Shown here piece after piece: positions 727-39,590 of a DNA stretch of 64,000 nt. The stretch comes from an uncultured Holophagales bacterium. Its GTDB lineage: Bacteria; Acidobacteriota; Thermoanaerobaculia; UBA2201. The stretch is taken from positions 309-64,308 of the forward strand of contig CAZRVT010000009.1 in NCBI GenBank assembly GCA_964603505.1, read 5' to 3'. The notes below the pieces were generated by a model. The model did not search any database, was not told the origin of the DNA, and was given only the letters and a program-made list of their open reading frames with translations. A program made the position numbers and the translations under genes. Numbering within the stretch: the first letter of the stretch is position 1; every line of letters starts with the position of its first letter.

Positions 727-3700
727 TCACGGTTTCGCAATCCCTAACTCGCGCATCTGGTATCCCAGCGCCTGGGGCGTGATGCCCAACAGGGTGGCGG
801 CCTTCGGCCGGTCCCAGCCGCTCCGCTCCAGGGCCTGGACGATGACCTTCCGACGGTACTCCCGGATCAGCGCCTGATAGTTCCCCTCGATCTTCAACTC
901 GTCCCCCGGCGCCGGGGTGGGAGCCGGAGCGTGCCGGATGGAGAGGGGCTCCCCCTTCTGCACGTGGACCAGGCAGGCCAGGAGGAAGTTCTCCAGTTCG
1001 CGGACGTTGCCGCGCCACTCCTGCTCCATGAGGTAGGTGAGATACAGGGGATGCAGGTCCACCGGGGGGAGGTCGAAGAGGTGGCGGTTCTTCTCCACCA
1101 GGGCGCGCGCGATGAAGGGGATGTCTTCCCGCCGTTCCCGCAGGGGCGGCAGGTCGAGGGTGGCGACGGCGAGGCGGTAGAAGAGGTCCTCGCGGAACCG
1201 TCCCTCCCTGACCATGTCCTTGAGCGAGCGGTTGGTGGCGGTGACGAGGCGGAAGTCCACCTCGAACGACCGGGCGTCGCCGAGCCGCTGGATCCGCCGG
1301 TCGTTGAGGACCCGCAGGAGCTTGGCCTGCAGGGCGGGGGGAAGCTCGCCCACCTCGTCGAGGAAGAGGGTTCCCCCATGGGCGGCCTCGATGACGCCGG
1401 GACGGTCCATGAGGGCCCCGGTGAAGGCCCCCTTGCGCCACCCGAAGATCTCCCCCTCGAAGAGCGATTCGGGGATGGAGGCGCAGTTGACGGCGACGAA
1501 CGGGCCGCCGCGGCGGGGGGAGGCGCGGTGGAGGGCCTGGGCCAGCACCTCCTTGCCGCTCCCCGTTTCGCCGGTGATGTGAACGGGAATGGCGGCGCGG
1601 GCCACCTTTTGCGCTTCGTACACGACGAGGGCGCTCTTGGGGCAGGCATAGACGAACCCGTGGAACACCTGCGGCTCGCTGTGGGTGAGGACCTCGGGCC
1701 GCCGCACCGGGGCCTCCCCGAGGCGCGCCTGCAGGGTGAGCCCCCACACCTTCCAGAACTCCTCGGGAAGGAGCGAATAATGGGGCGCGGAGAGCGTGAG
1801 GACGCCGCCGCCAGGCAGTTCGAGCGCGCGCTTCTCGGTCAGGGTCCCGGCGGCGTAGACCTTCCCGCTGGGGAGGGTGATCGCGAAGGGGACGGGGCCG
1901 GCGTCGGGGTCGAACTCCTCGCGGGTGAGGAACTCGAACGCCTGCACGACCCCGACGTCCACCCGCGGCTGGGCCACCGCCTCCCAGCCGAGGGCCCCCC
2001 GCTCCTTGAGCAGGTCGAGCGCGCGCCGCAGGCGCGCCTGGGGGACCTTTCCCGGGTGGAACCGGTCCCACTCCAGGGCGAGGACGGCCGCGGGGATGGG
2101 GTTGGGCTCCGCGGCGAGGCGCTCCCACGCGGTCCAGTCCATCCCCTTCTCCGCCGTCACGAGGGGAAGGGGCGGGACCGGGCCGGGGCAGGCCTTCCGC
2201 AGGGCCCCCTGGCCGAGCAGACGCTCCCGGTCCGCGCGGTCCTGGGGGATATCGGCCCTCCATCCTTTGAGGTCCCGGAGGGCGGCGCGGTAGTCCTCCC
2301 GGTCCCCCCACTTGGCCAGTTCCGTCCTCAGGATGGGGACCTTGACCCCCCACGGGTGTGCCGAAAGGGGGATGCCGAGGGCCTCGATCTCCTCCAGGCG
2401 GGCGCGCACCTCCCGGTGGCTGCCCAACCAGTAATGGACCCGCGCCAACTGGACCAGGTCGAAAAAGAGGGCGTGGCGGTCGTCCCGCTCTCGGTCGGCG
2501 GCCGCCGCGGCCGTGAAGATGCGCTCCGCCTCGGCCAGATCCCCCTCCTGGAGGGCGATCTCGCCGAGGTTGAAGTACACCAGGTTGAGCTTGCGCTCGC
2601 TCCCGAGGTGGCGGGCCAGGGCCGCGGCCGAGGCGAAGGCCATGCGGGCCTCCCCGGGCCGATCCGACTCGTTGAGGATGACGCCCAGGTCGTTGAGGGC
2701 GAGAGCCTCCTGCCACAGCCAGCCGCGCGAGACGGCCTCCGCCAGCCAGCGGTGGGCCGCCTCCGCCGCGTCCTTCAGGCGCCCCAGGGTGTAGAAGAAG
2801 TAAGACAGGTATCGGTAGTATTGGCCCGCCACCGCTGGCGGGAGGTGCGGGAGGGCCTCCTGGCAGCGCGCCAGGAGGGCCATGGCCTCTTCCCGGTCCC
2901 CCTCGCTGGCTCGCAGGTCGGCCAGGGCAAGGGCGGCGAGGGCGCCCCACGGGGACCGCAGGTCGCCGGCGGCCCCTTCCAGGACCTGCCGGGCCTCCGC
3001 CGGCCGCCCGTCCCTTCGCAACCGCCGCGCCTCCAGGAGGGGGGCCGCGTCGGGGGCTTCGGGGGTCCGGTCGTCCGGACCGGTCATGCCCTCCCAACGG
3101 AGGAGGAACGCGGGGAGGGCCAGGTCGGGGTCGCCGGGACGCTCCGCGCTCAGGGGGGAGAACTTCTCGGCATCCCCCTGCCAGGCGGCGACGAGCGCCT
3201 CGCACCGCTCCGGTTCCTCCGCCCGGTCGAGCCGTTCCAGGACGCCGAACACATTCCCTTCGCGGGCCGACACGGTCAGGGCGTCCCGCTCCCGGGCCGC
3301 CGCGGCGGCGGGGTCGAGGAGCGCCTCCAGGGCGCGCCGCACGGGACCCGGCGGGTCCCCCCGTTCCAGCACCTCCCGCGCGACGGCGGGATCGGGAGGG
3401 GCGTCCGGGAGGGGACGGGCGGGCCACCACCGCTCCTCCCGGAGGAACGCCCACCCTTCGGCCTCCAGCGCCTCTCCCATCGGCGGCGCCAGGGCGGCCG
3501 CGGGCAGGGGGACCCCGGCCTCCGCCAGAAGGGCCCACCCCTTGCGCGCGGCGGGGGAGGGCGGCGGTGGTTGGACCGGATCGGGGGCGAGGTCGGACAC
3601 CAGTTCGCCGGGGAGGAGGCCCCGCCTCCGGCCCAGGGCCTGGAGCCGCGCGATAGCCTGGGAAGGGCCGAGCCCGGGCAGGTGGACCGTCTTGAGGAAG

Positions 3701-4431
3701 TGCGGCACGGTCAGGACCGGAAGGGCGAGGGTCCGGAACCCCTCCAGCGGCTTGCCGGGCCATCCCGTGACCGCAGCCTCCATTCCGGTGTGGGGGGCCA
3801 GGATCAGGAACTGGAGGATCCGCTCGAAGGTAGCCGGCTCGCAGGCCGAGGCGTGGGCGACGATCAAACAGCGCGCGCCCCGGGCGAGCTCGCCCTCCAT
3901 AGCCGCCCAGGCGGCCCCGGGCGCCTGGGAGAGGAGGGCGCAATCGACCAGGACGGCGGCTTTCCCGGCGGCCAGGGCGGCAAGATAGAAATACCGGGCC
4001 GCCGCCCCATGGCCCCGTTCCCCGTGGCTCTCCACGAGCACGCGCAGGGGGCGGTCGGCCGGCGGGTCCCAGGAAGGGGGGAAGGCCTCCTCCCACGCCG
4101 GAAGAGCGTCGGGGCCGGGTTCCCATCCTCCGAGGGACCAGGGGCCCCCGGCGTCCTCCCCATTTTCCATCCTCTTCCACCCGTCCCCGTCGCGTGCCAA
4201 GTCGGGGAGGGGCCCCTGCGCCGCGGAGGCGGCCGACGAGAACCCGAAGCCGAAAAAGCCCCAGGTCACCGCCAGGGCTTCCGGACCGGGGGAGGGGGTG
4301 AGGGGCGGAAGGTAGTGGAGCTCACCCGCGCCCTCCGCCCACCGGCCCCAGGCGAGGCGCGGCAGGAAGGGGGCGCGCACGGCGGGGAGCCGGCGGAACC
4401 AGCGGGGGGCGGCGGCCGCGGCCCGGATCAC
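727..4431 (-). CDS. Sigma-54-dependent Fis-family transcriptional activator with a very large N-terminal TPR-like/sensory region
   Basis: The C-terminal third has AAA+ sigma-54 interaction motifs: GETGSGKE (Walker A), GAFTGA, ESLFEGEIFG, NVRELEN. A Fis-type HTH sits at the extreme C-terminus. The N-terminal ~800 aa is a continuous ORF of helical repeat-like sequence. Its stop overlaps the next gene's start. Confidence 0.85.
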   Translation of the reverse strand: MIRAAAAAPRWFRRLPAVRAPFLPRLAWGRWAEGAGELHYLPPLTPSPGPEALAVTWGFFGFGFSSAASAAQGPLPDLARDGDGWKRMENGEDAGGPWSLGGWEPGPDALPAWEEAFPPSWDPPADRPLRVLVESHGERGHGAAARYFYLAALAAGKAAVLVDCALLSQAPGAAWAAMEGELARGARCLIVAHASACEPATFERILQFLILAPHTGMEAAVTGWPGKPLEGFRTLALPVLTVPHFLKTVHLPGLGPSQAIARLQALGRRRGLLPGELVSDLAPDPVQPPPPSPAARKGWALLAEAGVPLPAAALAPPMGEALEAEGWAFLREERWWPARPLPDAPPDPAVAREVLERGDPPGPVRRALEALLDPAAAAARERDALTVSAREGNVFGVLERLDRAEEPERCEALVAAWQGDAEKFSPLSAERPGDPDLALPAFLLRWEGMTGPDDRTPEAPDAAPLLEARRLRRDGRPAEARQVLEGAAGDLRSPWGALAALALADLRASEGDREEAMALLARCQEALPHLPPAVAGQYYRYLSYFFYTLGRLKDAAEAAHRWLAEAVSRGWLWQEALALNDLGVILNESDRPGEARMAFASAAALARHLGSERKLNLVYFNLGEIALQEGDLAEAERIFTAAAAADRERDDRHALFFDLVQLARVHYWLGSHREVRARLEEIEALGIPLSAHPWGVKVPILRTELAKWGDREDYRAALRDLKGWRADIPQDRADRERLLGQGALRKACPGPVPPLPLVTAEKGMDWTAWERLAAEPNPIPAAVLALEWDRFHPGKVPQARLRRALDLLKERGALGWEAVAQPRVDVGVVQAFEFLTREEFDPDAGPVPFAITLPSGKVYAAGTLTEKRALELPGGGVLTLSAPHYSLLPEEFWKVWGLTLQARLGEAPVRRPEVLTHSEPQVFHGFVYACPKSALVVYEAQKVARAAIPVHITGETGSGKEVLAQALHRASPRRGGPFVAVNCASIPESLFEGEIFGWRKGAFTGALMDRPGVIEAAHGGTLFLDEVGELPPALQAKLLRVLNDRRIQRLGDARSFEVDFRLVTATNRSLKDMVREGRFREDLFYRLAVATLDLPPLRERREDIPFIARALVEKNRHLFDLPPVDLHPLYLTYLMEQEWRGNVRELENFLLACLVHVQKGEPLSIRHAPAPTPAPGDELKIEGNYQALIREYRRKVIVQALERSGWDRPKAATLLGITPQALGYQMRELGIAKP

Positions 4432-13055: not shown

Positions 13056-14084
13056 TCAGCGGCCGCGAAACCGGTAGTGGGCCACCATCCACTCCCGCCC
13101 GCCCCGGTAGCCGAACAACTCGGCGCAGGCCATGAAGAAGACCCGCCAGAGGCGGAGGCGCTTGAGCCCCTCGCCGGGGCCGTAGACCTCCTGCAGGGCC
13201 TTCAGAGCCGCGGCCCGGTGGCGGTCCAGGCGGGACAGCCACGCCTCGCAGGTGCGCTGATAGTGGGTCCCGTCCACGAGCCATCGCTCCTCGATCAACA
13301 AGTCCTTTAGGAAGTGGAGGAGGAGGTCGGCCGAGGGCATCGTCCCCCCGGTGAAGAAATACCGCGCCATCCAGTCGGAGGCGTCGCGCACCTCGAAGGG
13401 GTAGGCGGCGGTGCGGTGGCAGAAGATATGGACGAAGCAGCGTCCCCCGGGCCGCATCCACGAGGCGATGCGCTCCATGAGGCGGCCGTAGTTGCGGACA
13501 TGCTCAAACATCTCCACCGAGACCACGCGGTCGAAGGTCCCCGCCGGGGCGAAAGCGTTGATGTCGGCGGTGGCCACGGCGACGTTGGACAGCCCCCGCT
13601 CCCGGGCCCGCGCCTCGATGAAGGCCTTCTGCGACGCGGAGTTCGAGACGGCGGTGATCCGGCTCTTCGGGAACCGCTCGGCCACAAACAGCGTCAGCGA
13701 GCCCCAGCCGCACCCCAGCTCCAGCACCTCCTGCCCGTCCTGGAGCAGGGCCCGGCGGGCCGTGAGGTCCAGCATCGCCTCCTCGGAGGCGTCGAGGGTC
13801 GCGGTCCCCTCGGGCCAGAGGCCGCACGAATATTTCATGCGCCGGCCCATCACCTGCTCGAAGAAGGCGGCGGGGACCTCGTAGTGCTGGGCGTTGGCGT
13901 CCTCGACGCTCAGCGCAATGGGGGACTCGCGGAGGGTCCGGAGGAACGCCTGGAGCCGCTCCTCCTGCCGGGCGGGGTCGGCCGCGGCCTCCTCCCGGAG
14001 GCGGGCGGTGAGGAGTCGGCGGATGCCGAGGCGGATCAGGGGATCGGGCAGGAGGCCCTTTTCGATCAGGGGGCGGAAGTCCAT
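13056..14084 (-). CDS. Cyclopropane-fatty-acyl-phospholipid synthase family SAM-dependent methyltransferase (copy 2)
   Basis: VLELGCGWGSL (SAM motif I) and the CFA-synthase-type ends YSCGLWPEGT, FEHV, YFFTGG. It is the last gene of the fatty-acid-modification operon. Confidence 0.85.
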   Translation of the reverse strand: MDFRPLIEKGLLPDPLIRLGIRRLLTARLREEAAADPARQEERLQAFLRTLRESPIALSVEDANAQHYEVPAAFFEQVMGRRMKYSCGLWPEGTATLDASEEAMLDLTARRALLQDGQEVLELGCGWGSLTLFVAERFPKSRITAVSNSASQKAFIEARARERGLSNVAVATADINAFAPAGTFDRVVSVEMFEHVRNYGRLMERIASWMRPGGRCFVHIFCHRTAAYPFEVRDASDWMARYFFTGGTMPSADLLLHFLKDLLIEERWLVDGTHYQRTCEAWLSRLDRHRAAALKALQEVYGPGEGLKRLRLWRVFFMACAELFGYRGGREWMVAHYRFRGR

Positions 14085-14087
14085 GAC

Positions 14088-14882
14088 CTATCCTTTTTCG
14101 CGGCGCCTGGGGAACCAGGGAACGAAGGCGGAGGTGGTGCGGATGTAGTCGGCATAGTCCTCGCCCCGGGTGCGGAGGGCCTGGGCCTCGGTGGCGGGGA
14201 TGCCGGTGACGCGGAAGAGGAAATAGAGCAGCAGCGCCGGGACCAGCCAAGCCGAGACCCCAAAGGGAGAAGGGGTGGCCATCAGGGCGAATCCGCACCA
14301 CAGAAGGGCCTCGAAGAAGTAGTTAGGGTGGCGGGAGTACCGCCACAGGCCGGCCCGGCAGGTTTTGCCCCGGTTGGCGGGGGCCTGCTTGAACCGGTGG
14401 AGCTGGAGGTCGGCCGCCGCCTCTCCGATCCAACCCAGGAACCACACCGCCGCCCCCGCCCCCTCCAGTGGATGGAAGGCTGCGGCGGGATTGCGGCTCA
14501 TCAGGAGGAAGGGGAGGGCGAAGAAGAGGTCGAGGAGCCCCTGGAACTGGAAAAAGAAGAACAGCTTGATCTCCGCCCTTGTCCCCCACTCCTTCCTCAG
14601 CTGGACATAGCGTCCCTCCTCCGGATGGCCGAGGACGCGGGTGAAGAGGAGATAGAGCCCCAGCCGCAGCCCCCAGAGGGCAGCGGCGACGGCGGCCAGC
14701 CGGCGGCGCGGCCCCCAGCCCGGGAGGACGAGGGCGAAGAGGGTGGCGAGGATGGGGATGCCGAGGGTCCATCCGAAATCGACGATGCCGGCGTTGCTCA
14801 TCCGGCGGCCGACGGCATAGAGAGTCCCCATCCAGGCGGCCATGAGGAGCAGGCCGAGCGCGGCGGCGGTCCAGGCGCTCAT
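14088..14882 (-). CDS. DUF1295 / steroid 5-alpha-reductase-like membrane protein
   Basis: Starts MSAWTAAALGLLL. A multi-TM protein whose C-terminal region (RAGLWRYSRHPNYFFEALLWCGFAL) is typical of DUF1295/ICMT-like methyltransferase-fold membrane proteins. The N-terminal extension in the track ORF is spurious. ATGA overlap with the desaturase stop. Confidence 0.7.
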   Translation of the reverse strand: MSAWTAAALGLLLMAAWMGTLYAVGRRMSNAGIVDFGWTLGIPILATLFALVLPGWGPRRRLAAVAAALWGLRLGLYLLFTRVLGHPEEGRYVQLRKEWGTRAEIKLFFFFQFQGLLDLFFALPFLLMSRNPAAAFHPLEGAGAAVWFLGWIGEAAADLQLHRFKQAPANRGKTCRAGLWRYSRHPNYFFEALLWCGFALMATPSPFGVSAWLVPALLLYFLFRVTGIPATEAQALRTRGEDYADYIRTTSAFVPWFPRRREKG

Positions 14883-15751
14883 CGTCCCCCTCCCGTTCCC
14901 GCGGCCAGGACCGCCGGGGCGGGGCCGTGGAGCCCGCGCACCAACCCCATCCAGGAGGCGGCCCGGAGGAGATAATGGGTGGGGTCGAACTCCCACCAGA
15001 AGAACCCCTGCCGCTCGGAGATGGGGTAGTGGTGGTGGTTGTTGTGCCACCCCTCGCCCAGGGTCAGAAGCGCAATGAACGGATTGTTCCGGCTGGTGTC
15101 CTTCGTGGCGTAGCGGCGGCTGCCCCACACATGGGCCAGCGAGTTGACGGAGAAGGTGGCGTGGTAGAGCAGGACGGTGGAGAGGAAAAACCCCCACGCC
15201 AGCAGCTGCAGTCCGCCGGTCCCCAGGGCCGGGGCGCGGGCGGCCAGGACCTGCCCCGCGGCGAAGAGGGCGGCGGCCAGGCCGACGGGGACGAGGGCGT
15301 GGAAGCGGGTCAGGAAGACCAGCTCGGGGAAGGGCGTCCAGTCCTTCACCCGCGACGGGTCCCAGCTCTCGTTGGCCTTGCACAGGATCCATCCCATGTG
15401 CGCCCACCAAAACCCCTTGACCGAGGGGGAGTGGGGGTCGTTCTCGGTGTCGGTGGCCGCGTGGTGGCCCCGGTGGTGGGCGGCCCACCAGAGGGGGCCC
15501 ATCTGCCCCGCGGAGGTGCCGAGGAGGGCCAGGAGGAACTGGACCGCGCGGCCCGTCCGGTAGGAGCGGTGGGAAAAGTAACGGTGGAAGCCGGCCGTGA
15601 TGCCGAACATCCGGACGAGGTAGAGGCCGGCCGCGGCGCCCGCCGCGGTCCAGGAGAACTCCGCGAAGGGCAGGAGGAGGAGCCCCGCGTGGACCGAGAT
15701 GAACGGAAGGCTGCCGACGAGGTCCAGCCGCTCGTCCGGCCGGCGCGTCAC
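14879..15751 (-). CDS. Membrane fatty-acid desaturase, delta-9 (stearoyl-CoA/acyl-lipid desaturase) family
   Basis: Three histidine boxes: HRYFSH (HxxxxH), HHRGHH (HxxHH), HNNHHHYP (HxxHH). GTG start overlapping the upstream Cfa stop (GTGA). The rest of the 494-aa track ORF is a spurious in-frame extension. Confidence 0.8.
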   Translation of the reverse strand: MTRRPDERLDLVGSLPFISVHAGLLLLPFAEFSWTAAGAAAGLYLVRMFGITAGFHRYFSHRSYRTGRAVQFLLALLGTSAGQMGPLWWAAHHRGHHAATDTENDPHSPSVKGFWWAHMGWILCKANESWDPSRVKDWTPFPELVFLTRFHALVPVGLAAALFAAGQVLAARAPALGTGGLQLLAWGFFLSTVLLYHATFSVNSLAHVWGSRRYATKDTSRNNPFIALLTLGEGWHNNHHHYPISERQGFFWWEFDPTHYLLRAASWMGLVRGLHGPAPAVLAAGTGGGR

Positions 15752-17007
15752 GCGGCCCCTCCCCCGAGGGAGTGGTTGCCGGGGCGGGTCAGGACCAGCT
15801 GGAGGTCGTTGAGGTGTCGGGCCCGGAAGCCGGCTTCGCAATAAGCGAAATAGTATTCCCAGGCGCGCAGGAACCGCTCGTCCCGCCCCTGGGCGAGGGC
15901 CTCCTCCCGGTGGGCCAGGAGGGCCTCCCGCCAGGCCCGGAGGGTGGGGGGGTAGTGGGGGCCGATGTTCTCCAAATGCTCCACCGTCAGCGCGGAGTGG
16001 CGCGTCATGGCCGCCGACAGCGCCGTGAGGGAGGGGAGGAGAGCGCCGGGGAAGATCGCCCTCTGGATCCAATCGCCGGTCCGGCGATAGGCCTCGTACC
16101 GCTGGTCCGGGATGGTGATCACCTGCACCACCGCCAGTCCGTCGGGCTTCAGGAGGCGGTCGAGGGCCCGGAAGAAGGCGGGGAAATTCTCGTGCCCGAC
16201 CGCCTCCAGCATCTCGATGGAGACGATCCGGTCGAAGGCGCCCTCCAGCCGCCGGAAGTCGCGCAGGAGCACCTCCACCCGCCCTTCCAATCCGGCCTCT
16301 CGCACCCGCTCCCGGGCGAGGCGGTGTTGTTCCTCGGAGATGGTCACGGTCGTCACCCGGCAACCCGCGGAGGCCGCGGCCTCCAGGGCGAACGAGCCCC
16401 AGCCGGAGCCGATCTCGAGGAGGTGGTGTTCCGGCGCCAGTCGGGCCTTCTCCAGGACCGCCCGCAGTTTCCGGCGCTGGGCCTGTTCCAGCGTGTCCCC
16501 CTCACGCCAAAGGGCGCAGGAGTAGGTCATGGTGGGGTCGAGGAAGAGACGGAAGAAATCGTTGCCCAGGTCGTAGTGGCGGCGGATGTTGCGGCGGCTG
16601 CCCGGCACGGTGTTCCGGTTCAACCGGTGGCGGATCCGGTGGAGGAGGCGGCCGAGCGCCGCGGAGCCGATCCGGCGGTCGTCCACCGCGGCCGCGTTCC
16701 GGATCAGGAACTCGATCAGCCCGGGCAGGTCGGGGGTCTCCCAGTCGCCGTCCACGAAGGCGTCGCCGAAGCCGAGGTCCGCCTCCAGAAGGACGCGGCG
16801 GAAGAACCGTTCCCGGCGGACCCACAGGGCCGCCACCGGGCCCCCGGACGGGCCGAAGGCGAGCGAGGCGCCGTCGGGAAGAGACATCATCAGGCGCCCT
16901 TCCCGGATCCGCGCCAGCATCCCCAGCACGGGCCGGCGGGCGAGCCGGTCGAGCGGTCTGGGGCGGGCGGGGGGGGCGTCGAGGATCCATTCATCGGGTT
17001 CGGTCAT
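15748..17007 (-). CDS. Cyclopropane-fatty-acyl-phospholipid synthase family SAM-dependent methyltransferase (copy 1)
   Basis: LLEIGSGWGSFAL (motif I) and the Cfa-type MTYSCALW, IEMLEAVGHENF, YFAYCEAGF. Confidence 0.9.
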   Translation of the reverse strand: MTEPDEWILDAPPARPRPLDRLARRPVLGMLARIREGRLMMSLPDGASLAFGPSGGPVAALWVRRERFFRRVLLEADLGFGDAFVDGDWETPDLPGLIEFLIRNAAAVDDRRIGSAALGRLLHRIRHRLNRNTVPGSRRNIRRHYDLGNDFFRLFLDPTMTYSCALWREGDTLEQAQRRKLRAVLEKARLAPEHHLLEIGSGWGSFALEAAASAGCRVTTVTISEEQHRLARERVREAGLEGRVEVLLRDFRRLEGAFDRIVSIEMLEAVGHENFPAFFRALDRLLKPDGLAVVQVITIPDQRYEAYRRTGDWIQRAIFPGALLPSLTALSAAMTRHSALTVEHLENIGPHYPPTLRAWREALLAHREEALAQGRDERFLRAWEYYFAYCEAGFRARHLNDLQLVLTRPGNHSLGGGAA

Positions 17008-17857
17008 GGGGTTTACTCCGGTCGAACAGCGCCCCCGCGCGGGCCAAAAGCGGCGAGGTGGCGAGGCGCTGGAGCAGGGGCTCGCGTCCCTTGATGAACG
17101 TGTCGGGGGAGGCGGGCTCGGGCTTGGGATGAAAAGGGAGCTTCCGGCGGTAGTAAAGCTTGGACGCCTGCCACAGGATGCGCGGCATGGTCAAGGCGGC
17201 GGTCAGGGGATGGCGGAGGGCGGCGGACAGGAGGGTTCCGCCCCCCAGGGGCCGAAGGGGCCCCCACAGGCGGGCACGGAACGCCTCCTCGCCGTCGCGG
17301 AACAGCCGGGCGGTGACGTCGAGCCCCTCGCGGGGGTCGCCGAAGGTGAACGCGTAGGTGCCGGAGCGGTCGAAGAAGGGGGAGACGTGGAAGGCCTTGG
17401 CGAACTCGTACCGGACGGGCCAGGCGCCGTCGCCCGCGGGGGTATGGAGGACATAGAGGTGGGCCTCGCCGAAGGTGTTGGCCACCTCCGCCACCGTGGC
17501 GCGCAGGGTGCCGTCCCCCCGCAGGGCGAGGAAGAACGAGACGGGGTTGAAGACATACCCGAACCACCGCGCCGAGGTGATGAGGAGGGTGCGCTCCACG
17601 CCGTCGGCGCATCCGCGCTCCTTCAGCAGGGCCAGCAGGCGCTCTTTCATCGGGCCGGCGCCGCCGCGGAGGTAGTCCCGATCCCAAAGGGAGACGGGCC
17701 GGAACCGGTTGTAGCCGAATCCCCCCAGGGTTTGGTCCAAAACAGGCAGATCGTCCAGATCGAAGAGATAGGCCAGGACGGGATACTGGAAAGCGTGCCC
17801 GACCGGTCCCAGGCGAGCGTGCATCACCCGGCCCCGCACGAGGAAGGAGTTCACCAT
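16991..17857 (-). CDS. DUF1365 family protein
   Basis: Starts MVNSFLVRGRVMHARLGPVGHAFQYPVLAYLFDLDDL, characteristic of DUF1365 (commonly encoded between an amine-oxidase-like gene and cfa). The rest of the 625-aa track ORF is spurious. Confidence 0.7.
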   Translation of the reverse strand: MVNSFLVRGRVMHARLGPVGHAFQYPVLAYLFDLDDLPVLDQTLGGFGYNRFRPVSLWDRDYLRGGAGPMKERLLALLKERGCADGVERTLLITSARWFGYVFNPVSFFLALRGDGTLRATVAEVANTFGEAHLYVLHTPAGDGAWPVRYEFAKAFHVSPFFDRSGTYAFTFGDPREGLDVTARLFRDGEEAFRARLWGPLRPLGGGTLLSAALRHPLTAALTMPRILWQASKLYYRRKLPFHPKPEPASPDTFIKGREPLLQRLATSPLLARAGALFDRSKPHDRTR

Positions 17858-19146
17858 GCCGCTCCGAGACTCCGCGCGGCCTCGACCCCCGAACGGACGG
17901 CGTCCTCGTGGAAGCCGTTGTGGAAGTAGGCCCCGCAGAACCAGGTGCGCCGGGTCCCGTTGAGGCCGGGGAGGAGGGCCTGCGTGGCCACCGCCTCGCG
18001 CGTGTAGAGGGGATGGGCGAACTCCACCGATTCGATGACCCGATCCGGGGCGACGGCGGCGCGCCGATTGAGGGTGACGAGATACTCCTCCCGCGTCCGA
18101 AGCCCCTGCAGACGGTTCATGTGATAGGTCAACGAAACCGGGTCGCCGGGCGCGGCGCCGCGCTCCCGGGCGTAGTTCCACGAGGCCCACGCGCTCCGCG
18201 CCCGCGGAAGGACCGAGGCGTCGGTGTGGAGGATGGTGAGGTTGCGCGAATAGCGCCAGGCCCCCAGGAGGCGGCGCTCCTCCTCGGAAGGGTCGGCCAG
18301 GAGGGCCAGGGCCTCGTCGGCGTGGGTCGCCACGACGGCATGGTCGAACCGCTCCTCCGTCCCCCCGAAGCGGACGCGCACCCCCCCCTCCTCCCGGAGG
18401 AGGGCCTCCACGCGACAGGCCGTCCGCACCGTCCCGGCGAACCGCCGCAGGAACGCGTCCACATACGACCGGCTCCCCCCTGCGACGGTCTGCCAGCGGG
18501 GGCGGTCCCTCAGGGAGAGGAGCCCGTGGTTGCGGAAAAACCGCATGAAAGCGGCGGCGGGAAACTCCAGGATCCGGCCCGGGGCCGCCGACCAGATGGC
18601 CGCCCCCATCGGAAGGAGGTAACGCTCGCGGAACGGGGCCGAGTAGCCCCCCTCCTGGAGATACGCCCCCATCGTCACCGTCTCCAGGTCCCTCCGCCCC
18701 CGCAGGTCCTCCAGCGCCGAGCGGCTGAACCGCCGGATCTCCCACAGCATGCTCCAGAAGGCCGGGGAGAAGAGGTTCCGCCGCCGGGAAAAGAGGCCGT
18801 TGAGGGTCGTTCCGGCGTAGTGGAACCCGCTGGTCTCGTCGTGGTAGGCGAAGGACATGTCGCTCCACCGCCAGGCGACCCCGAGGTCGGCCAGCAACCG
18901 GTGGAGGGTGGGGTAGGTGCGGTCGTTGAGGACGATAAAGCCCATGTCCACCCGGGTCCCGGCGTCCGGCCCGGAAGGGACTTCGACCGTGTGGACATGT
19001 CCCCCCAGCCGGGGGCCCTTCTCGAAGAGGGTGACCCGGTGGCGCCCCTGGAGGAGGTGGGCGGCGGCGATCCCCGCCGCCCCCCCGCCGATGACGGCGA
19101 CGGTGCCGGGTGGCGGGGGGGGCATGGGCGTGGAGGGGGCGGGCAT
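17851..19146 (-). CDS. FAD/NAD(P)-binding amine-oxidase-family oxidoreductase (COG2907 type, UfaD-like)
   Basis: Dinucleotide-binding motif VAVIGGGAAGIAAAHLL and a flavin amine oxidase-like C-terminus (FCGAYFHNGFHEDAVRSG). Start set at MPAPSTP (19146) rather than track start 19230. Confidence 0.8.
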   Translation of the reverse strand: MPAPSTPMPPPPPGTVAVIGGGAAGIAAAHLLQGRHRVTLFEKGPRLGGHVHTVEVPSGPDAGTRVDMGFIVLNDRTYPTLHRLLADLGVAWRWSDMSFAYHDETSGFHYAGTTLNGLFSRRRNLFSPAFWSMLWEIRRFSRSALEDLRGRRDLETVTMGAYLQEGGYSAPFRERYLLPMGAAIWSAAPGRILEFPAAAFMRFFRNHGLLSLRDRPRWQTVAGGSRSYVDAFLRRFAGTVRTACRVEALLREEGGVRVRFGGTEERFDHAVVATHADEALALLADPSEEERRLLGAWRYSRNLTILHTDASVLPRARSAWASWNYARERGAAPGDPVSLTYHMNRLQGLRTREEYLVTLNRRAAVAPDRVIESVEFAHPLYTREAVATQALLPGLNGTRRTWFCGAYFHNGFHEDAVRSGVEAARSLGAAW

Positions 19147-19189
19147 GTTTGCGCTATAACAACGACGGAAGGGCTCCCCTTCCCATCGC

Positions 19190-20101
19190 TCAGGGCGCGG
19201 GGACCGGCACCCGGCGGGTTTGAGCCGCAATGGCCGAGCGGATCGCCGGCAGGGCCGCGCGGGCGGCCGCCATTCCCGCCTCGAAGAGACGCTTCTTCTG
19301 AGTAAAGTCGTCGTAGGCCACGCCGGCCACTTCGGGGGTGATCACCACATCCGCCCGTTGGAGGGTGCACCGCCCCACTTCGGAAGCCATGATCGCCGCC
19401 GCCTGGATGGCCACCTCGAAGGGGTTGGAGGGGGCGCGGGCCGGCACTCCCGCCGGGATGCTCACCGCGATGACCACTTCGGCGCCCATGGCGCGCACCG
19501 CGTCCACCGGGACGGGGGCGGTCACCCCCCCGTCGACGAAGACGCGCCCGTCGATGGAAACCGGGACGAAGACGCCCGGGATGGCCGCGGAGGCGTGGAC
19601 GGCCCTGGCGGCCGGGCCCTGCCGGAAGGCCACCGTCTCGCCCGTCCGGAGGTCCACGGCGACGGCGGCGTAGGGGACGGCAAACCCCTCGATGGTCTTG
19701 TGCTTGAGGCGGGCGTCGAGGAAGGCCTCGATCCGCTCGCCCTTGACGAACCCGCCCGAGAAAAAGGCCAGGGTGGAGCGGTCGAAGATGTCCTCGGCGG
19801 TCACCTGGACCGAGGTGAACTCCAGATCCACCACCGATCCCGAATCGGCGTAGAGGGCCCCGATGAGGGCCCCGACGGAGGTGCCGGCGACGCGGTCCAC
19901 CGGGATCCTCTCCTGCTCGAGCACCCGCAGGACGCCCACTTCGGCGAAGCCCCGAGCGCCGCCTCCGCCAAGGGCCACCCCGACCACGGGGGGGACCTCT
20001 TTCCATGCCGCCGGGGCGGGCGGCGGGGGAGAGGGCGGGGTGGCACAGGCGGCGAGCACGAGGCACAGTGACGGCAGGGTTCCGGCGAGGGTGCGTTTCA
20101 T
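19190..20101 (-). CDS. Patatin-like phospholipase, lipoprotein-type signal
   Basis: GGGARG oxyanion motif and GTSVG (GxSxG nucleophile elbow). DGGV (catalytic Asp) is present. Signal peptide MKRTLAGTLPSLCLVLAACA with a lipobox-like LAAC. Confidence 0.85.
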   Translation of the reverse strand: MKRTLAGTLPSLCLVLAACATPPSPPPPAPAAWKEVPPVVGVALGGGGARGFAEVGVLRVLEQERIPVDRVAGTSVGALIGALYADSGSVVDLEFTSVQVTAEDIFDRSTLAFFSGGFVKGERIEAFLDARLKHKTIEGFAVPYAAVAVDLRTGETVAFRQGPAARAVHASAAIPGVFVPVSIDGRVFVDGGVTAPVPVDAVRAMGAEVVIAVSIPAGVPARAPSNPFEVAIQAAAIMASEVGRCTLQRADVVITPEVAGVAYDDFTQKKRLFEAGMAAARAALPAIRSAIAAQTRRVPVPAP

Positions 20102-20165: not shown

Positions 20166-20660
20166 TCACTCGCCGGGGATCGTTTCACGGCAGGGTTCGC
20201 CCGTTTGGCGGTCGGTGCCGTAGAGGTCGATGGAGAGCACCCTGGGGATGAGCGAGGTTCCCTCGCCGGCGATGTAGATGCGCTCCAGGGTGCAGAGCCG
20301 CTTTCCGATGGAGGTCTCGGCCCACACCGCGCCCCCCTCCTGCTTCACCCGCACCCTCCGCGTCTCGATGGCCTTCAGACGCAGGTCGTAACTCCGGCCG
20401 CCGTCGATCGGCGCTGTGGAGAAGCCGTAGGCCTTGGCCTTTTCAAGCAGCGTCAATTCCTCCCGGACGCCCCCCTTCTCCACCATCACCCAATAGGCGG
20501 AGACCGGCCGCTTGGCGTCCAGGCGCCCCTGGGCGTCCAGATTGGCCTCGTAGTGGAGGACGTTGCGGTTGAGGGAGCGCTCGATGACGAACAGGGGGAG
20601 GGCCTCGCCGGCGGCGAGGGTCGAGGCGAGGACCATCATGCAACAGAAGAAGCGTTTCAC
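20166..20660 (-). CDS. Hypothetical secreted protein
   Basis: Signal peptide MKRFFCCMMVLASTLAAGEA followed by a protein-like sequence. Operonic with the patatin gene. Confidence 0.5.
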   Translation of the reverse strand: MKRFFCCMMVLASTLAAGEALPLFVIERSLNRNVLHYEANLDAQGRLDAKRPVSAYWVMVEKGGVREELTLLEKAKAYGFSTAPIDGGRSYDLRLKAIETRRVRVKQEGGAVWAETSIGKRLCTLERIYIAGEGTSLIPRVLSIDLYGTDRQTGEPCRETIPGE

Positions 20661-21253
20661 AGGCCTATCCTTAGAAAGTTCGCCAGGAGTTGGAGTCCGC
20701 GCTCACCGGATTGCTCGGGATGGAACTGGACCCCGAAAAGAGGCTTGTCCCGGTGCCGGATCCCCTCCAATCCGCCCTCGGGCGACTCCGCGATTTCCTC
20801 GAAGATGGCGTGCAGGGCCTCGTCGCGCACGACGATTTCCTCGTGGCTCTCATGCATAGGAAATGATGCGGGGAAGCCCTCGAACAAGCCTCCGGGTTTG
20901 AGGAGCCGGACCTGTTCCTCTCCCTTGTGTTTCAGGCCGTCCCTTCGCACAGTGGCGCCGAAAGCGTGCGCGAGGAGCTGGTGCCCGTAGCAGATCCCCA
21001 GGAGGGGAACGGCGCAGGACCGCGCCAGCTCCACCAGGGCGGGCTCCACCTGGCCCTCCCCCACCATCTTCGGGGAGCCCGAAACGACCACGAGGTCGGA
21101 GGGGGCGCCGGAGAGGGTGGCATCGGGCTCCTCCCGCACCTCGATTGCAACGCCGGCGCGCTCGGCGGCCCTCCGAAGCGCGTCCCGGTAGCCGGCGATC
21201 TTCACCTCGGCATCCGTGGGATAACAGTTGACGAGCAGAACCCTGATCGGCAT
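20657..21253 (-). CDS. Class I glutamine amidotransferase-like protein
   Basis: GICYGHQLL (catalytic Cys) and GVQFHPE (His/Glu). Stand-alone GATase1 domain. Confidence 0.8.
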   Translation of the reverse strand: MPIRVLLVNCYPTDAEVKIAGYRDALRRAAERAGVAIEVREEPDATLSGAPSDLVVVSGSPKMVGEGQVEPALVELARSCAVPLLGICYGHQLLAHAFGATVRRDGLKHKGEEQVRLLKPGGLFEGFPASFPMHESHEEIVVRDEALHAIFEEIAESPEGGLEGIRHRDKPLFGVQFHPEQSGERGLQLLANFLRIGL

Positions 21254-21329
21254 GTCGCTTCCCCCGGCCGGACTCTGCCGGCCGCGTCCATTCTACCGGA
21301 AACGGCGCGGCGGCGGGGGGTGTTTCTCC

Positions 21330-21359
21330 TTGAAGGGCCCTTAGTATCTATGGTATGAT
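21330..21359 (+). promoter_or_regulatory. Candidate sigma-70-like promoter (TTGAAG-18-TATGAT) for the nfnAB-like operon
   Basis: A hexamer pair with an 18-nt spacer about 30 nt upstream of the AAGGAG RBS and ATG at 21388. Confidence 0.35.
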
Positions 21360-21387
21360 TTGCCGATTTTTCCGCCAAGGAGCCCCG

Positions 21388-22233
21388 ATGTACAAGATCC
21401 TGAAAAAGCAGGTCTTTTCGCCGGTCACCTACCTCTGGGAGGTGGAGGCGCCCGACCTTGCCCGGGCCGCCCGGCCCGGCCATTTCGTCATTGTCCGCCA
21501 CAAGGAGGGGGGGGAGCGCATCCCGCTCACCATCGCCGATTTCGACCCCGCCCGGGGCACCATCACCCTGGTCATCCAAGCGGTCGGGCAGAGCACGAAG
21601 GAGATGATGGCCTTCGAGGAGGGCGCGGCCCTGCTCAACCTCGTCGGTCCCCTGGGCATCGCAAGCCACATCCAGCACTACGGCACCGTGGTCATGGTGG
21701 GGGGCGGCCTCGGCGTGGCGCCCGTCTTCCCGCAGTTGCGGGCGCTCAAGGAGGCCGGCAATAAAACCATCTCCATCATCGGCTTCCGGTCGAAGGACCT
21801 GATCTTCTGGGAGGACAAGTTCCGGAAGTACTCCGACGAGCTCATCATCACCACGGACGACGGGTCGTTCGGCGAGAAGGGGCTGGTGGTCGGGCCGCTG
21901 AAGCGCCTCCTCGAGGAGCGTCCCGGCGGCATCCAGATGGTCACCGCCATCGGCCCCGGCATCATGATGAAGGCCTGCTGCGAGACCACCCGCCCCTTCG
22001 GGGTCAAGACCATCGTCTCCCTCAACACCATCATGGTGGACGGCACGGGGATGTGCGGTTCGTGCCGCGTGTCGCTCGGGAAGGATGTGAAGTTCGTTTG
22101 CGTGGACGGCCCCGACTTCGACGGCCACCAAGTCAACTGGGACGAGCTGATGCAGCGGCAGAACCGGTTCCGCCGCGAGGAACAGCACTCCCTGGAGCAC
22201 TGCAAGCTCAACGCCAAAGTGGAGGGAGCGTAA
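21388..22233 (+). CDS. NfnA/SudB-like FAD and [2Fe-2S] oxidoreductase subunit (PyrK-like ferredoxin-NADP reductase fold)
   Basis: Starts MYKILKKQ. Contains the FAD-binding RxYS-type region, MVGGGLGVAPV (NAD-binding) and a C-terminal cysteine cluster CGSCRVSLGKDVKFVCVDGP. AAGGAG RBS upstream. Confidence 0.8.
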   Translation: MYKILKKQVFSPVTYLWEVEAPDLARAARPGHFVIVRHKEGGERIPLTIADFDPARGTITLVIQAVGQSTKEMMAFEEGAALLNLVGPLGIASHIQHYGTVVMVGGGLGVAPVFPQLRALKEAGNKTISIIGFRSKDLIFWEDKFRKYSDELIITTDDGSFGEKGLVVGPLKRLLEERPGGIQMVTAIGPGIMMKACCETTRPFGVKTIVSLNTIMVDGTGMCGSCRVSLGKDVKFVCVDGPDFDGHQVNWDELMQRQNRFRREEQHSLEHCKLNAKVEGA

Positions 22234-22236
22234 GCC

Positions 22237-23655
22237 GTGAGTGAGACCAAGAGGAAGAACATCGCCACCATCCCGCCCGACCGAACCACGATGCCGGAGC
22301 AGCCTCCCGAGGTGCGCCGAAAGAATTTCAAGGAGGTGGCTCTCGGATACCGGGAGGAGCACGCCCTCCGTGAAGCCGAGCGCTGCATCCAGTGCAAGAA
22401 GCCCCTCTGCGTTCCCGGTTGCCCCGTCGGCATCGACATCCCCGGTTTCATCCGGGCCATCGCGGAGAAGGACTACCCGAGGGCTTACGAGATCCTCCTG
22501 GCCTCCGACCTCCTCCCCGCCGTCACCGGCCGCGTATGCCCGCAGGAAAGCCAGTGCGAGGCCACCTGCATCGTCGGCAAGAAGTTCGAGCCGGTGGCCA
22601 TCGGCCGTCTCGAGCGCTTCGCCGCCGACTATGCCCTGGCCCACCACCTGGCCAAGATCCCCGAGATCCGGAAGCGCTCCGAGAAGGTCGCCGTCATCGG
22701 GAGCGGCCCCGGCGGCCTCACCTGCGCCGCCGACTGCGCCCGCGCCGGCCTCCAAGTCACCATCTTCGAGGCCCTCCACGTCGCCGGCGGCGTCCTCAAG
22801 TACGGCATCCCCGAGTTCCGCCTCCCGAACGCCATTGTGGACCGGGAGATCGAGAACCTCCTCAAGATGGGGGTCGAGATCAAGGTGGACCACATCATCG
22901 GCAAGATCTTCACCATCCCCCAACTGATGAACGAGATGGGGTACCGGGCCGTGTTCATCGCCACGGGGGCCGGGTTCCCCAAGTTCATGGGGATCGACGG
23001 CGAGGGGCTCAACGGCGTGATGAGCGCCAACGAGTTCCTCACCCGCGTCAACCTCATGACCGGATTCGAGTTCCCCCGCTCCGGGACCCCGGTGGGGATG
23101 GGGAAGCGGGTGGCCACCATCGGCGCCGGCAACACCGCCATGGACTCCTCCCGCACCGCCCTGCGCCTGGGGGCGGAGAAGTCCTACATCGTCTACCGCC
23201 GCACGGAGCGCGAGAGCCCCGCCCGGAGGGAGGAGCTCCACCACGCCATGGAGGAAGGGGTGGAGTTCCTGTGGCTCAACAATCCCGTGGAGATCCTGGG
23301 GAAGGAGGGCTGGGTGAAGGGGATGAGGTGCATCAAGATGGAGCTCGGCGCCCCCGACGAGAGCGGCCGCCGCAGCCCCGTTCCGGTTCCGGGCTCGGAG
23401 TTCGAGCTGGACGTGGACACCGTCATCTACGCCCTCGGCACCAAGGCCAACCCCATCATTGCCTCTACCACTCCGGGCCTCAAGACCAACAAGTGGGGGT
23501 ACATCGAGGTGGACCCCGAGACGCAGGAAACCTCGATCCCCGGGGTCTTCGCCGGCGGCGACATCGTCACCGGCTCGGCCACCGTCATCCTGGCGATGGG
23601 GGCCGGCCGCAAGGCCGCCCGCGGGATCCTTAAACGCCTGGGGATCCATGGCTAA
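22237..23655 (+). CDS. Glutamate synthase small-subunit-like NADPH oxidoreductase (GltD/NfnB/SudA family)
   Basis: N-terminal Fe-S cysteines (CIQCKKPLCVPGCP, CPQESQCEATC), VAVIGSGPGGLTCA (FAD site) and a second dinucleotide site VATIGAGNTAMD. GTG start 4 nt after the upstream stop. Confidence 0.85.
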   Translation: MSETKRKNIATIPPDRTTMPEQPPEVRRKNFKEVALGYREEHALREAERCIQCKKPLCVPGCPVGIDIPGFIRAIAEKDYPRAYEILLASDLLPAVTGRVCPQESQCEATCIVGKKFEPVAIGRLERFAADYALAHHLAKIPEIRKRSEKVAVIGSGPGGLTCAADCARAGLQVTIFEALHVAGGVLKYGIPEFRLPNAIVDREIENLLKMGVEIKVDHIIGKIFTIPQLMNEMGYRAVFIATGAGFPKFMGIDGEGLNGVMSANEFLTRVNLMTGFEFPRSGTPVGMGKRVATIGAGNTAMDSSRTALRLGAEKSYIVYRRTERESPARREELHHAMEEGVEFLWLNNPVEILGKEGWVKGMRCIKMELGAPDESGRRSPVPVPGSEFELDVDTVIYALGTKANPIIASTTPGLKTNKWGYIEVDPETQETSIPGVFAGGDIVTGSATVILAMGAGRKAARGILKRLGIHG

Positions 23656-38957: not shown

Positions 38958-39074
38958 GCCCACCCCCAGCCGATCCTGCCCGTAGGAACCGATGTCGTTT
39001 TTCGTGCGCTTGTCAAGCCCCGATGAAGCCCATTTTTATGTTGCGAGATCCGGAGAGAGCCAGTTTTTCCAGGG

Positions 39075-39585
39075 CGGGGGGACCCCGCAACGTTCAGCGC
39101 GGAACTGGGAATTGCCTTGGAGGGGCGGCGGGATCGCCGCCGTCGGCCTGCTCCCGGCAAGACGAGTTTCCGAAGCCTCAAGTCCGAACGGCCTCGACCC
39201 CCGCCGGGGTCAGATGATTTTTTTCTCGTCCAACGGATGGATGAGATGGTGCACGCTCCGCACCGCCTCGCGGTTGACCCAGACGCGGATGTTGTTGGTG
39301 ACGGGGTCGGCGGGGACCACATAGAAGCCGACGGCCTGGGGGAGACGGGCGACGTCGTTGACGAACCCCTCCATCATCTCCCCGTCCTTGAAGACGACCC
39401 GCACCTTCTGCCCGGAGCTGAGGGTGAAGGTCTGCCGGCCGGCCTGGGCCTTCACCCCCGTCCCCTCGAACGACTTCACGTAAAAGGCGCCCTTGACCTT
39501 CTTCAGGTCCACCCAGTGGATCTTCTCCTCCAGGTCCTTGAACTCCAGGACGGTCTCCCCGGGGGCGATGACGGAGCCGAACCCC
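39075..39585. repeat. Direct repeat copy 1 (511 bp, identical to 40498..41008)
   Basis: A base-for-base identical sequence appears twice. The six-frame track shows identical peptides from both copies (e.g. GGGTPQRSARNWELPWRGGGIAAVGLLPARR... and MWSPPTPSPTTSASGSTARRCGACTISS...). Confidence 0.95.
39196..39224 (+). terminator. Possible intrinsic terminator (plus-strand orientation) inside repeat copy 1: GACCCC-cgcc-GGGGTC then agatga TTTTTTT
   Basis: A 6-bp GC stem with a 7-T run 6 nt downstream. It could terminate the kinase transcript. The identical element in copy 2 (40619..40647) follows hepT. Confidence 0.4.
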
Positions 39586-39590
39586 CGCAA
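39210..39590 (-). pseudogene. 5'-truncated copy of the tandem Sm-like-motif small protein (lacks the first ~16 codons; TTG is the only available start)
   Basis: Residues 2-126 are identical to residues 17-141 of the 40633..41058 product. The repeat boundary falls inside the coding sequence. The frame is open upstream to a TAA with no ATG. Confidence 0.5.

Follow-up and report, generated by a model that had tools for sequence, protein, structure and literature searches.

What does a bacterium make with two methylases annotated as cyclopropane synthases, a membrane desaturase, a flavoprotein and two proteins of the families DUF1365 and DUF1295, all encoded back to back? The question is raised by a stretch of 64,000 nucleotides (nt) from contig CAZRVT010000009.1 of an uncultured Holophagales bacterium (assembly GCA_964603505.1), the whole of which we call the window, and in which six minus-strand genes, in the order F, E, D, C, B and A, follow each other almost without gaps. 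Judging from families, gene order and subfamily residues, we consider it fairly probable that F-E-D-C-B-A is one translationally coupled operon by which membrane phospholipids have their acyl chains turned into methylated furan fatty acids, with mono- and dimethyl furan fatty acids as its likely output. Furan fatty acids are potent membrane antioxidants of industrial interest. The six genes are as follows.

Gene F: 17851-19146, minus strand, 431 amino acids, Pfam Amino_oxidase (5e-23) and NAD_binding_8 (1e-14)
Gene E: 16991-17857, minus strand, DUF1365 protein (PF07103) of 288 amino acids, E value 5.6e-72 over model positions 1-235 of 235
Gene D: 15748-17007, minus strand, long CMAS-family protein of 419 amino acids, Pfam E value 3e-86
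Gene C: 14879-15751, minus strand, FA_desaturase-family protein of 290 amino acids with a GTG start, Pfam E value 3e-20
Gene B: 14088-14882, minus strand, DUF1295 protein of 264 amino acids, Pfam E value 7e-65
Gene A: 13056-14084, minus strand, CMAS-family protein of 342 amino acids, Pfam E value 1e-39

Genes were called from a frame plot of G+C content at third codon positions (GC3), the list of open reading frames and Pfam, with NCBIfam models as a second library; at about 68% G+C, raw lists of open reading frames for the window are crowded with spurious frames. The calls resolve one unbroken series of nine co-directional minus-strand genes running from 21253 to 13056, which ends with the six listed here. 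The stop of F overlaps the start of E by 7 nt, and the remaining junctions measure -17 (E/D), -4 (D/C), -4 (C/B) and +3 nt (B/A), a spacing from F to A that points to a translationally coupled operon. Independent JGI calls on the 64.6-kb source contig (metagenome 3300043267, Ga0484935_000276) give identical products of 419, 290, 264 and 342 amino acids, and the identical sequence is present in Logan SRR12686701. A six-gene minus-strand operon with start/stop overlaps had been described in an earlier account made from the letters of this DNA (the sequence-only reading), and it is borne out by the junction distances, Pfam, the GC3 plot and the JGI calls. The anatomy of the locus, its gene families, its synteny with characterised loci and its subfamily signatures are direct observations.

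In the pathway that we propose, the desaturase C would use O2 to give a saturated acyl chain a cis double bond, and the methylase D would transfer the methyl group of S-adenosyl-methionine (SAM) onto that double bond, giving a methyl-branched trans-monoene. The flavoenzyme F would turn the methyl-branched monoene into a conjugated methyl-diene, the DUF1365 protein E would add an O2-derived oxygen and close the ring to give a monomethyl furan fatty acid, and A, as a FufM-type enzyme, would add a second methyl group to yield the dimethyl furan fatty acid. We infer every catalytic step, the acyl chain used as substrate and the position modified, the supply of substrate by C, what A produces and whatever part B plays.

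Gene order and methylase residues of the core trio

The first three genes correspond to a set characterised in Rhodopseudomonas palustris, where RPA2571 (ufaD), RPA2570 (ufaO, encoding a DUF1365 protein) and RPA2569 (ufaM) are contiguous and both necessary and sufficient for making the methyl monoene, the methyl diene and 9M5-FuFA, a monomethyl furan fatty acid (FuFA); UfaO is a DUF1365 protein in both Rhodobacter (Cereibacter) sphaeroides and R. palustris (Lemke et al. 2020, PMC7380195). Halomonas YLGW01 carries ufaM, ufaD and ufaO consecutively, and its cluster-linked methylase, expressed in Escherichia coli, yields 11-methyl-octadec-12-enoate (PMC12089945). The window shares the three contiguous core families with R. 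palustris CGA009, and its gene order F-E-D is that of ufaD-ufaO-ufaM. Homologues of F stand directly upstream of DUF1365 genes in at least 35 related loci, and also in Ralstonia and Acinetobacter. F carries a GGGAAG dinucleotide-binding motif (19072-19089) and D the SAM motif LEIGSGWG (16396-16419). R. palustris also has a second, divergent CMAS-family methylase (FufM), as the window has A, but its fufM (RPA0924) stands apart from the ufa genes and a desaturase has not been reported, whereas the window holds everything, the desaturase included, in one operon.

The functional model for F, E and D comes from R. sphaeroides, in which neighbouring genes encode UfaD (RSP1091) and UfaO (RSP1090, DUF1365), enzymes that convert the product of UfaM to 9M5-FuFA, and in which RSP1091-1087 together with RSP2144 (ufaM) form the sigmaE/ChrR core regulon. 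The rest of that operon differs from the window: RSP1089 is a GPH symporter and not a Cfa protein, RSP1088 is hypothetical and RSP1087 is an SDR protein, all three being dispensable, and the operon is without FufM, DUF1295 and a desaturase and adjoins rpoE-chrR, which the window is without. The sequence-only reading had presented the trio as a conserved core reported from Rhodobacter. Contiguity does hold in R. palustris, Halomonas and Pseudomonas syringae, but in R. sphaeroides itself ufaM (RSP2144) is unlinked.

Among PDB entries D is closest to E. coli Cfa (6bqc, 7e-63), with coclaurine N-methyltransferase (CNMT) at 2e-16, and it has in common with E. coli Cfa (6BQC) the two-domain length, the CMAS fold family and the residues C139, E239 and Y317. 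G236, H240, H266 and A355 of the E. coli enzyme differ. In an alignment of D with E. coli Cfa and 16 long CMAS proteins encoded next to DUF1365 genes at other loci, the changes G236 to E, H240 to A and H266 to Q occur in D and in all 16, and A355 to E occurs in D and in 15 of the 16. The DUF1365-linked methylases accordingly read EMxEAxG and xQxIT where E. coli Cfa reads GMFEHVG and LHTIG; the Cfa of L. acidophilus retains the histidines, as E. coli Cfa does. These E, A and Q substitutions, common to all of the linked methylases aligned, set them apart from Cfa, and by this comparison the H266Q signature marks the DUF1365-linked methylases as a distinct subfamily. In Cfa we take bicarbonate to be bound by C139, E239, H266, I268 and Y317 (E. 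coli numbering); the corresponding residues are C, E, Q, I and Y in D and C, E, H, F and Y in A, so that neither carries the full canonical set. Both also fall short of the NCBIfam Cfa equivalog cut-off of 400, with scores of 298 (D) and 167 (A).

We therefore predict D to be a UfaM-type enzyme methylating a cis-monounsaturated acyl chain, F a UfaD-type enzyme desaturating the methyl-branched monoene to the conjugated diene and E a UfaO-type protein for O2-dependent formation of the furan ring. Families, gene order and methylase residues all favour the earlier proposal of a ufaD/ufaO/ufaM-type locus for methylated or furan fatty acids. That proposal was to be given up if both methylases clustered with canonical cyclopropane synthases and the lipids showed only cyclopropane fatty acids; the sequences do not bear out such clustering, D being without H266 and A lying far from Cfa.

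The second methylase, the desaturase and the DUF1295 protein

A shares only 31% identity with D and carries its own SAM motif, LELGCGWG (13701-13724). In phmmer comparisons with the PDB it matches CNMT (6gkv) over its full length at 9e-81 and 275 bits, followed by pavine and tetrahydroprotoberberine N-methyltransferases; the alignment with the plant enzyme (6GKV) keeps the E-x-F-E-H motif region. E. coli Cfa is a distant match (1e-24), and its N-terminal domain is missing from A. The description of A as a second Cfa is thus right about the CMAS family and wrong about the branch, which is that of the CNMT-like enzymes.

A bacterial enzyme of this branch has a known role in furan fatty acid synthesis. 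FufM (RPA0924, UniProt Q6NBA4) converts 9M5-FuFA into the dimethyl 9D5-FuFA (PMC7380195), and its identity with UfaM is reported as 26%. It is 37.9% identical to Arabidopsis AT4G33110/LIME1 (AtFUFM1), reported to be the most FufM-like plant protein (PMC10940516), and AT4G33110 is annotated as a putative coclaurine N-methyltransferase. CNMTs methylate the nitrogen of alkaloid amines, whereas FufM methylates carbon in the furan ring of a phospholipid acyl chain. Published cloning primers give the start of fufM as MSGLASL and its end as RLKPA*, and place RPA0923 upstream with an ATGA overlap. C-termini of A-type proteins (HYRLKKAGL, HYLLRPAGRT, HYRFVKP and similar) fit the FufM ending, while those of D-type proteins differ. 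The overlap of RPA0923 with fufM is much like that in DUF1295/A-type pairs elsewhere, and the pair in Shinella resembles it. From these comparisons A is predicted to be FufM-type and to add a second methyl to the furan ring, with a dimethyl furan fatty acid as the end product. The protein collection searched contains 8000 or more A-type proteins, and homologues of A and B at 55-64% identity are labelled Acidobacteriota, Thermoanaerobaculia, Bryobacteraceae or Steroidobacteraceae. A 26-mer from the published fufM primers had no exact match in the metagenomes. The 21-mer at the R. palustris fufM start, ATGAGCGGGCTCGCCTCGCTG, was found exactly in 20 contigs (loci L004-L023), mostly metagenome-assembled genomes (MAGs) of Chloroflexia/Chloroflexota and none from Rhodopseudomonas; about 0.3 matches are expected by chance, so that some conserved Chloroflexota gene start appears to share it.

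C has three histidine boxes, HRYFSH (15569-15586), HRGHH (15461-15475) and HNNHH (15032-15046), matches mouse SCD1 best in the PDB (4ymk, 2e-28) and shares 54% identity with acyl-CoA desaturase genes of cyanobacteria, among which one carries the annotation desC1. By these sequence relations C is a member of the SCD/DesC (‘delta-9’) first-desaturase family, as the sequence-only reading had it; members of this family include enzymes with other double-bond positions. A metagenome scan anchored on C collected 80 loci with homologues 46-59% identical, whose neighbours were typed by tblastn with the window proteins. The ufa genes adjoin the desaturase homologue in 41 of the 80 and in 21 of the 34 informative loci, that is, those with at least 2.5 kb on both sides of the desaturase. 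This linkage, which persists through shuffled gene orders, and the co-induction seen in Stenotrophomonas maltophilia (below) argue that C belongs to the pathway, and in the simplest case it would provide the UfaM-type enzyme with the cis-olefin to be methylated.

Besides DUF1295, Pfam finds Steroid_dh in B (8e-10) and, weakly, PEMT and ICMT. An AlphaFold model built from 28 homologues (predicted local distance difference test score 87.7) has human SRD5A2 (7bw1) and bacterial PbSRD5A (7c83) as its top Foldseek matches, with probability 1.00 and template-modelling (TM) scores of 0.48-0.57, above ICMT folds at 0.36-0.41; the sequence match to 7c83 has an E value of 0.009. RHPNYFFE and many charged residues are invariant in the 28 homologues; the former corresponds to the C-terminal R-H-P-N-Y...E cofactor motif of the clan that comprises SRD5A, ERG4/24, ICMT, PEMT and DUF1295, and the cofactor may be NADPH or SAM. 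According to the model, B is a polytopic membrane protein with a steroid-5-alpha-reductase-like fold. As between reductase and methyltransferase, the fold favours SRD5A over ICMT, although the E values are weak (0.01) and the RHPNY motif occurs in both. Ralstonia, Shinella, Acinetobacter and numerous metagenome loci pair a B-type gene with an A-type one, and a table of singlet-oxygen-responsive genes in Chlamydomonas lists CFA2, DUF1365 and DUF1295 genes together. Our best guess, held with low confidence, is that B uses NAD(P)H to reduce a C=C bond of a pathway product or of its oxidised form.

Distribution of the cluster, close relatives and upstream genes

All six families (desaturase and the F, E, D, B and A types) occur together in 13 of the 80 metagenome loci scanned, most commonly in the order desaturase, F, E, D, gap, B, A. 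One MAG contig in ENA (L001) reads MarR, YceI, desaturase, amine oxidase, DUF1365, CMAS, DUF1475, DUF2062, DUF1295 and short CMAS. The closest match to the window, L064, has its order F-E-D-C, with identities of 58, 50, 56 and 56%. Acinetobacter haemolyticus plasmid p4 (CP085288.1, 81.6-87.7 kb) carries, by annotation, all six families in one run, in the order lipocalin, acyl-CoA desaturase, oxidoreductase dependent on flavin adenine dinucleotide (FAD), DUF1365, cyclopropane fatty acid (CFA) family, DUF1295 and class I methyltransferase; its desaturase is 52% and its A protein 49% identical to those of the window. Several other Acinetobacter plasmids hold the desaturase and an A-type gene about 5 kb apart. 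The chromid of Ralstonia wenshanensis has the Acinetobacter run minus the desaturase (FAD oxidoreductase, DUF1365, CFA family, DUF1295, short CFA family) and continues with DUF2878, lipocalin, a chalcone-isomerase-like gene and photolyases; a homologue of A is present in 129 Ralstonia records. In Shinella, DUF1295 and an A-type gene directly follow rpoE-chrR, without adjacent ufaD or ufaM genes. The window differs from the Acinetobacter p4 and Ralstonia loci (e.g. CP076412.1), which have lipocalin, chalcone-isomerase-like and photolyase flanks and sit on a mobilisable plasmid or a chromid, in being chromosomal, and its desaturase comes after the long methylase, whereas that of p4 leads the run.

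A cluster of this kind has already been reported in S. maltophilia, as the nine-gene operon smlt2375-smlt2367 (PMC11832516, published in 2025). It encodes, in order, a periplasmic hypothetical protein, an acyl-CoA desaturase, an FAD oxidoreductase and a cytosolic hypothetical protein, then CfaS2, two inner-membrane hypothetical proteins, CfaS1 and a lipocalin; in a chrR mutant its expression rises 165- to 700-fold, an effect that depends on sigmaEc, and it is responsible for raised menadione tolerance and ceftazidime susceptibility and is discussed in terms of CFA synthases (PMC11832516). By published annotation, through which alone it is likened to the window, its content and order match the commonest form of the cluster. 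Order and predicted location suggest that its hypothetical proteins include the DUF1365 and DUF1295 members. Its desaturase precedes the methylases, whereas that of the window follows the long methylase, and the window is without its lipocalin, its leading periplasmic protein and its divergent rpoE-chrR. The extra desaturase, the DUF1295 protein and the second methylase, seen in the sequence-only reading as extending the pathway, are all present, but they are widespread and not peculiar to this genome. On gene content, the window operon thus appears to belong to a widespread, already reported and little-understood family of clusters. By analogy with Rhodobacter and Stenotrophomonas, it probably protects against singlet oxygen or other membrane oxidants.

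Two JGI contigs (L112 and L113; this type of locus is found in JGI 3300001580 and 3300002220) come from much closer relatives, with 81-86% nucleotide identity to window positions 25791-13046 and synteny from YkuD to the end of A. They are without window positions 19198-14882, which are exactly genes F, E, D and C, so that the patatin gene upstream of F in the window abuts an intact DUF1295 gene; of A they keep only codons 1-21 and 224-342, fused at a CCGACT microhomology (window 14013-13382 missing). A more distant contig, L115, has patatin followed directly by DUF1295, without A and without F-E-D-C. Identities of the B protein are 84% (window and L112), 80% (L112 and L115) and 78% (window and L115). 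These values make L115 the outgroup and a single insertion of F-E-D-C into a patatin-DUF1295-A unit more parsimonious than two deletions, an argument from the pairwise identities of one protein. Whether inserted or deleted, the synthesis genes are, on this comparison, accessory within the lineage. GC3 is uniform at 0.88-0.95 across genes A-H and gives no sign that F-C is foreign by composition.

The three genes upstream of F, and a hairpin in the gap before it, are as follows.

Gene I: 20657-21253, minus strand, class I glutamine amidotransferase (GATase) of 198 amino acids, Pfam E value 1e-31
Gene H: 20166-20660, minus strand, DUF4833 protein of 164 amino acids with a signal peptide, Pfam E value 9e-32
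Gene G: 19190-20101, minus strand, patatin-like phospholipase of 303 amino acids, Pfam Patatin 4e-33, NCBIfam RssA-like 5e-37
Hairpin: 19167-19183, minus strand, GGAAGGG-GAG-CCCTTCC in the 43-nt gap between G and F (scan match GGAAGGGGAGCCCTTCC), followed by a poor T tract

The junctions here are -4 (I/H), +64 (H/G) and +43 nt (G/F). G has a LAAC lipobox and the motifs GGGARG (GGGxRG), GTSVG (GxSxG) and DGG. A patatin lipoprotein and a secreted protein had been described upstream in the same orientation, as G and H indeed are; the same account also called the patatin gene divergently anchored, which is mistaken, G lying on the minus strand directly upstream of F. Near desaturase homologues, patatin was found in 1 of the 80 loci, GATase in 1 and DUF4833 in none, and we rejected all three as general parts of the pathway. 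The patatin gene is directly upstream of DUF1295 in L112, L113 and L115, and from these loci G appears to be conserved next to DUF1295 in this lineage only and not to be a general component of the cluster. H and I are probably the head of the transcription unit, and transcription may start upstream of I (21254-21354). The GATase-DUF4833 pair, with its 4-nt overlap, is kept upstream of patatin in L112 (4608-5695) and L113. The hairpin, at the edge of the segment missing from the relatives, might act as a weak terminator or be a site of processing; terminator-like matches in total equal the shuffle expectation, which makes it weak evidence. Just after the patatin stop, GGGAAGGGGAG resembles GGGAGGGGGAC just before the start of B, the two being near-repeats that flank the F-C segment.

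Competing explanations and genomic surroundings

Database labels would have both methylases be ordinary cyclopropane synthases and the operon make unsaturated and cyclopropanated lipids: A and D match the Pfam CMAS and NCBIfam Cfa models and JGI names both ‘cyclopropane-fatty-acyl-phospholipid synthase’, with the S. maltophilia study reading its cluster likewise. We regard this as very improbable, as the two proteins score under the Cfa cut-off, D has Q at H266 and A at H240 like all DUF1365-linked homologues, A is much nearer CNMT than Cfa, and the cluster-linked homologues of R. palustris and Halomonas yield methyl-olefins, not cyclopropanes. The methyl-olefin itself could instead be close to the end product, with D or A adding a methyl or methylene group to the double bond made by C and the DUF1295 protein reducing the olefin that results, so that mid-chain methyl-branched saturated or monounsaturated fatty acids are formed. 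This would account for a desaturase and a methylase in one operon and for a protein with a steroid-5-alpha-reductase-like fold that nearly always adjoins a methylase; the 11-methyl monoene is genuinely made by UfaM-type enzymes, and the sterol C24-methyltransferase ERG6 with the reductase ERG4, and BfaB/BfaA making 10-methyl stearate, offer parallels. It leaves unexplained, however, the conserved DUF1365 and amine-oxidase genes, for which no role is known other than forming furans; moreover, the partner of B is in the FufM/CNMT branch and not the Cfa/BfaB branch, and B is intact in relatives without A, D and C. Such an outcome seems to us distinctly improbable.

A different kind of explanation holds that the six genes need not serve one pathway, the locus being a recent mosaic in which a ufaD-ufaO-ufaM-desaturase cassette sits inside an older patatin-DUF1295-methylase unit of different function, for instance one that remodels or repairs damaged phospholipids, with A methylating a non-furan acceptor. 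The loci L112, L113 and L115, in which patatin is followed by DUF1295 with no F-E-D-C, the outgroup position of L115, the identical F-E-D-C order of L064 and the existence of DUF1295/A pairs without adjacent ufaD or ufaM genes all fit such an insertion. We nonetheless consider separate functions unlikely: the B-A pair recurs with F-E-D, with or without C, in many unrelated genomes, a recurrence which argues that the modules cooperate and that an insertion would have rebuilt a known functional set. GC3, too, is uniform across the locus, and the outgroup inference comes from a single protein's pairwise identities. Turning to an elaboration of the furan pathway, the desaturase and the DUF1295 protein might both be integral to a self-contained, horizontally mobile furan-fatty-acid module that, with patatin, runs a cycle of synthesis and repair. 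A dedicated DesC-type desaturase with its own regiospecificity would then make the cis-olefin of UfaM on demand, and the DUF1295 protein would be an enone reductase of the membrane that uses NAD(P)H, or else reduce some other C=C bond of the product. As an enone reductase it would act on the reactive dioxo-ene chains into which furan fatty acids turn on scavenging singlet oxygen or radicals, and in this lineage the patatin lipase would excise the spent chains, staying beside DUF1295 where the synthesis genes are missing. We hold this fuller scheme to be doubtful.

Several points weigh against the six genes forming a furan-fatty-acid operon as we propose. Orthology to UfaD, UfaO, UfaM and FufM is drawn from family, synteny and indirect comparison, not direct alignment. 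The plant relatives of A in the CNMT branch are N-methyltransferases, and A may have another acceptor. In R. sphaeroides and in vitro, FufM by itself was enough to form dimethyl-FuFA, which leaves DUF1295 unneeded for that step. In 13 of the 34 informative loci the desaturase has no ufa gene close by, and C could be an ordinary housekeeping desaturase riding with the cluster. The link to stress is borrowed from other organisms: tblastn with Shinella queries found neither sigmaE nor ChrR in the 64-kb window, which is also without homologues of MerR, GTP cyclohydrolase I, DUF2878, lipocalin, the chalcone-isomerase-like protein and photolyase, and the missing photolyase, lipocalin and ChrR/ECF11 sigma factor tell against the proposal, although a regulator may lie elsewhere in the genome. 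A search for a promoter of the extracytoplasmic function (ECF) sigma type, suggested in the sequence-only reading, disclosed no ECF11 site in the gaps upstream of F, G and I. With the consensus TGATCC-N16-CGTA (PMC5507510) and up to two mismatches, the whole window gives 53 matches against 38 +/- 7 expected, and the nearest ECF11-like site (19319-19344, two mismatches) lies inside the patatin gene. Finally, NfnAB-like neighbours (below) hint at an anaerobic or microaerobic lifestyle, yet three of the proposed steps need O2.

If the furan-fatty-acid reading is right, a common natural form of the pathway would hold two more conserved genes, for a DesC-type desaturase and a DUF1295 reductase-like protein, as is suggested by the window locus, at least 13 related loci, Acinetobacter plasmids and the operon of S. 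maltophilia; what annotation calls a second cyclopropane synthase would be FufM/CNMT-like. To our knowledge, only three or four bacterial furan fatty acid enzymes have been characterised, all from two alphaproteobacteria. What is added here is the FufM/CNMT reassignment, the H266Q signature, a quantified linkage of desaturase and DUF1295 and natural insertion/deletion variants, which amount to concrete candidates for testing and not to a new kind of system. The close relatives without exactly F-C provide a natural comparison for lipidomics.

Chromosomal housekeeping genes, those for CorA, PurH, aconitase, PBP2 and RNase G, flank the operon, and no rRNA, tRNA or Rfam matches were found in the window. 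Scans for sigma-70 promoters and terminators gave nothing above shuffle expectation except the small G-F hairpin. Divergent from the nine-gene series is a plus-strand pair (21355-23655), a DHODB-type Fe-S subunit and a Fer4_20/Pyr_redox_2 protein, resembling electron-bifurcating NfnAB or sulfide dehydrogenase; the region's only sigma-70-like promoter match (21330-21359, plus strand) precedes it. PurH has only a handful of metagenome relatives above 59% identity, and the best named one among those read, from Thermodesulfovibrio, is 53% identical. Unrelated to the operon, a minus-strand gene at 727-4431 encodes a sigma-54 activator of 1234 amino acids with TPR repeats and a long N-terminal region without a Pfam match. 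A direct repeat of about 330 nt (99-100% identity; 39064-39392 and 40487-40815, copies 1423 nt apart) overlaps the 3' parts of minus-strand open reading frames 39210-39590 and 40633-41058 and looks like a local gene duplication; a 46-nt piece of it has a third copy at 40986-41031 (74% identical). At the right-hand end of the window, positions 62001-64000 have a G+C content of 0.567 against 0.68 overall and may border on foreign or non-coding DNA.

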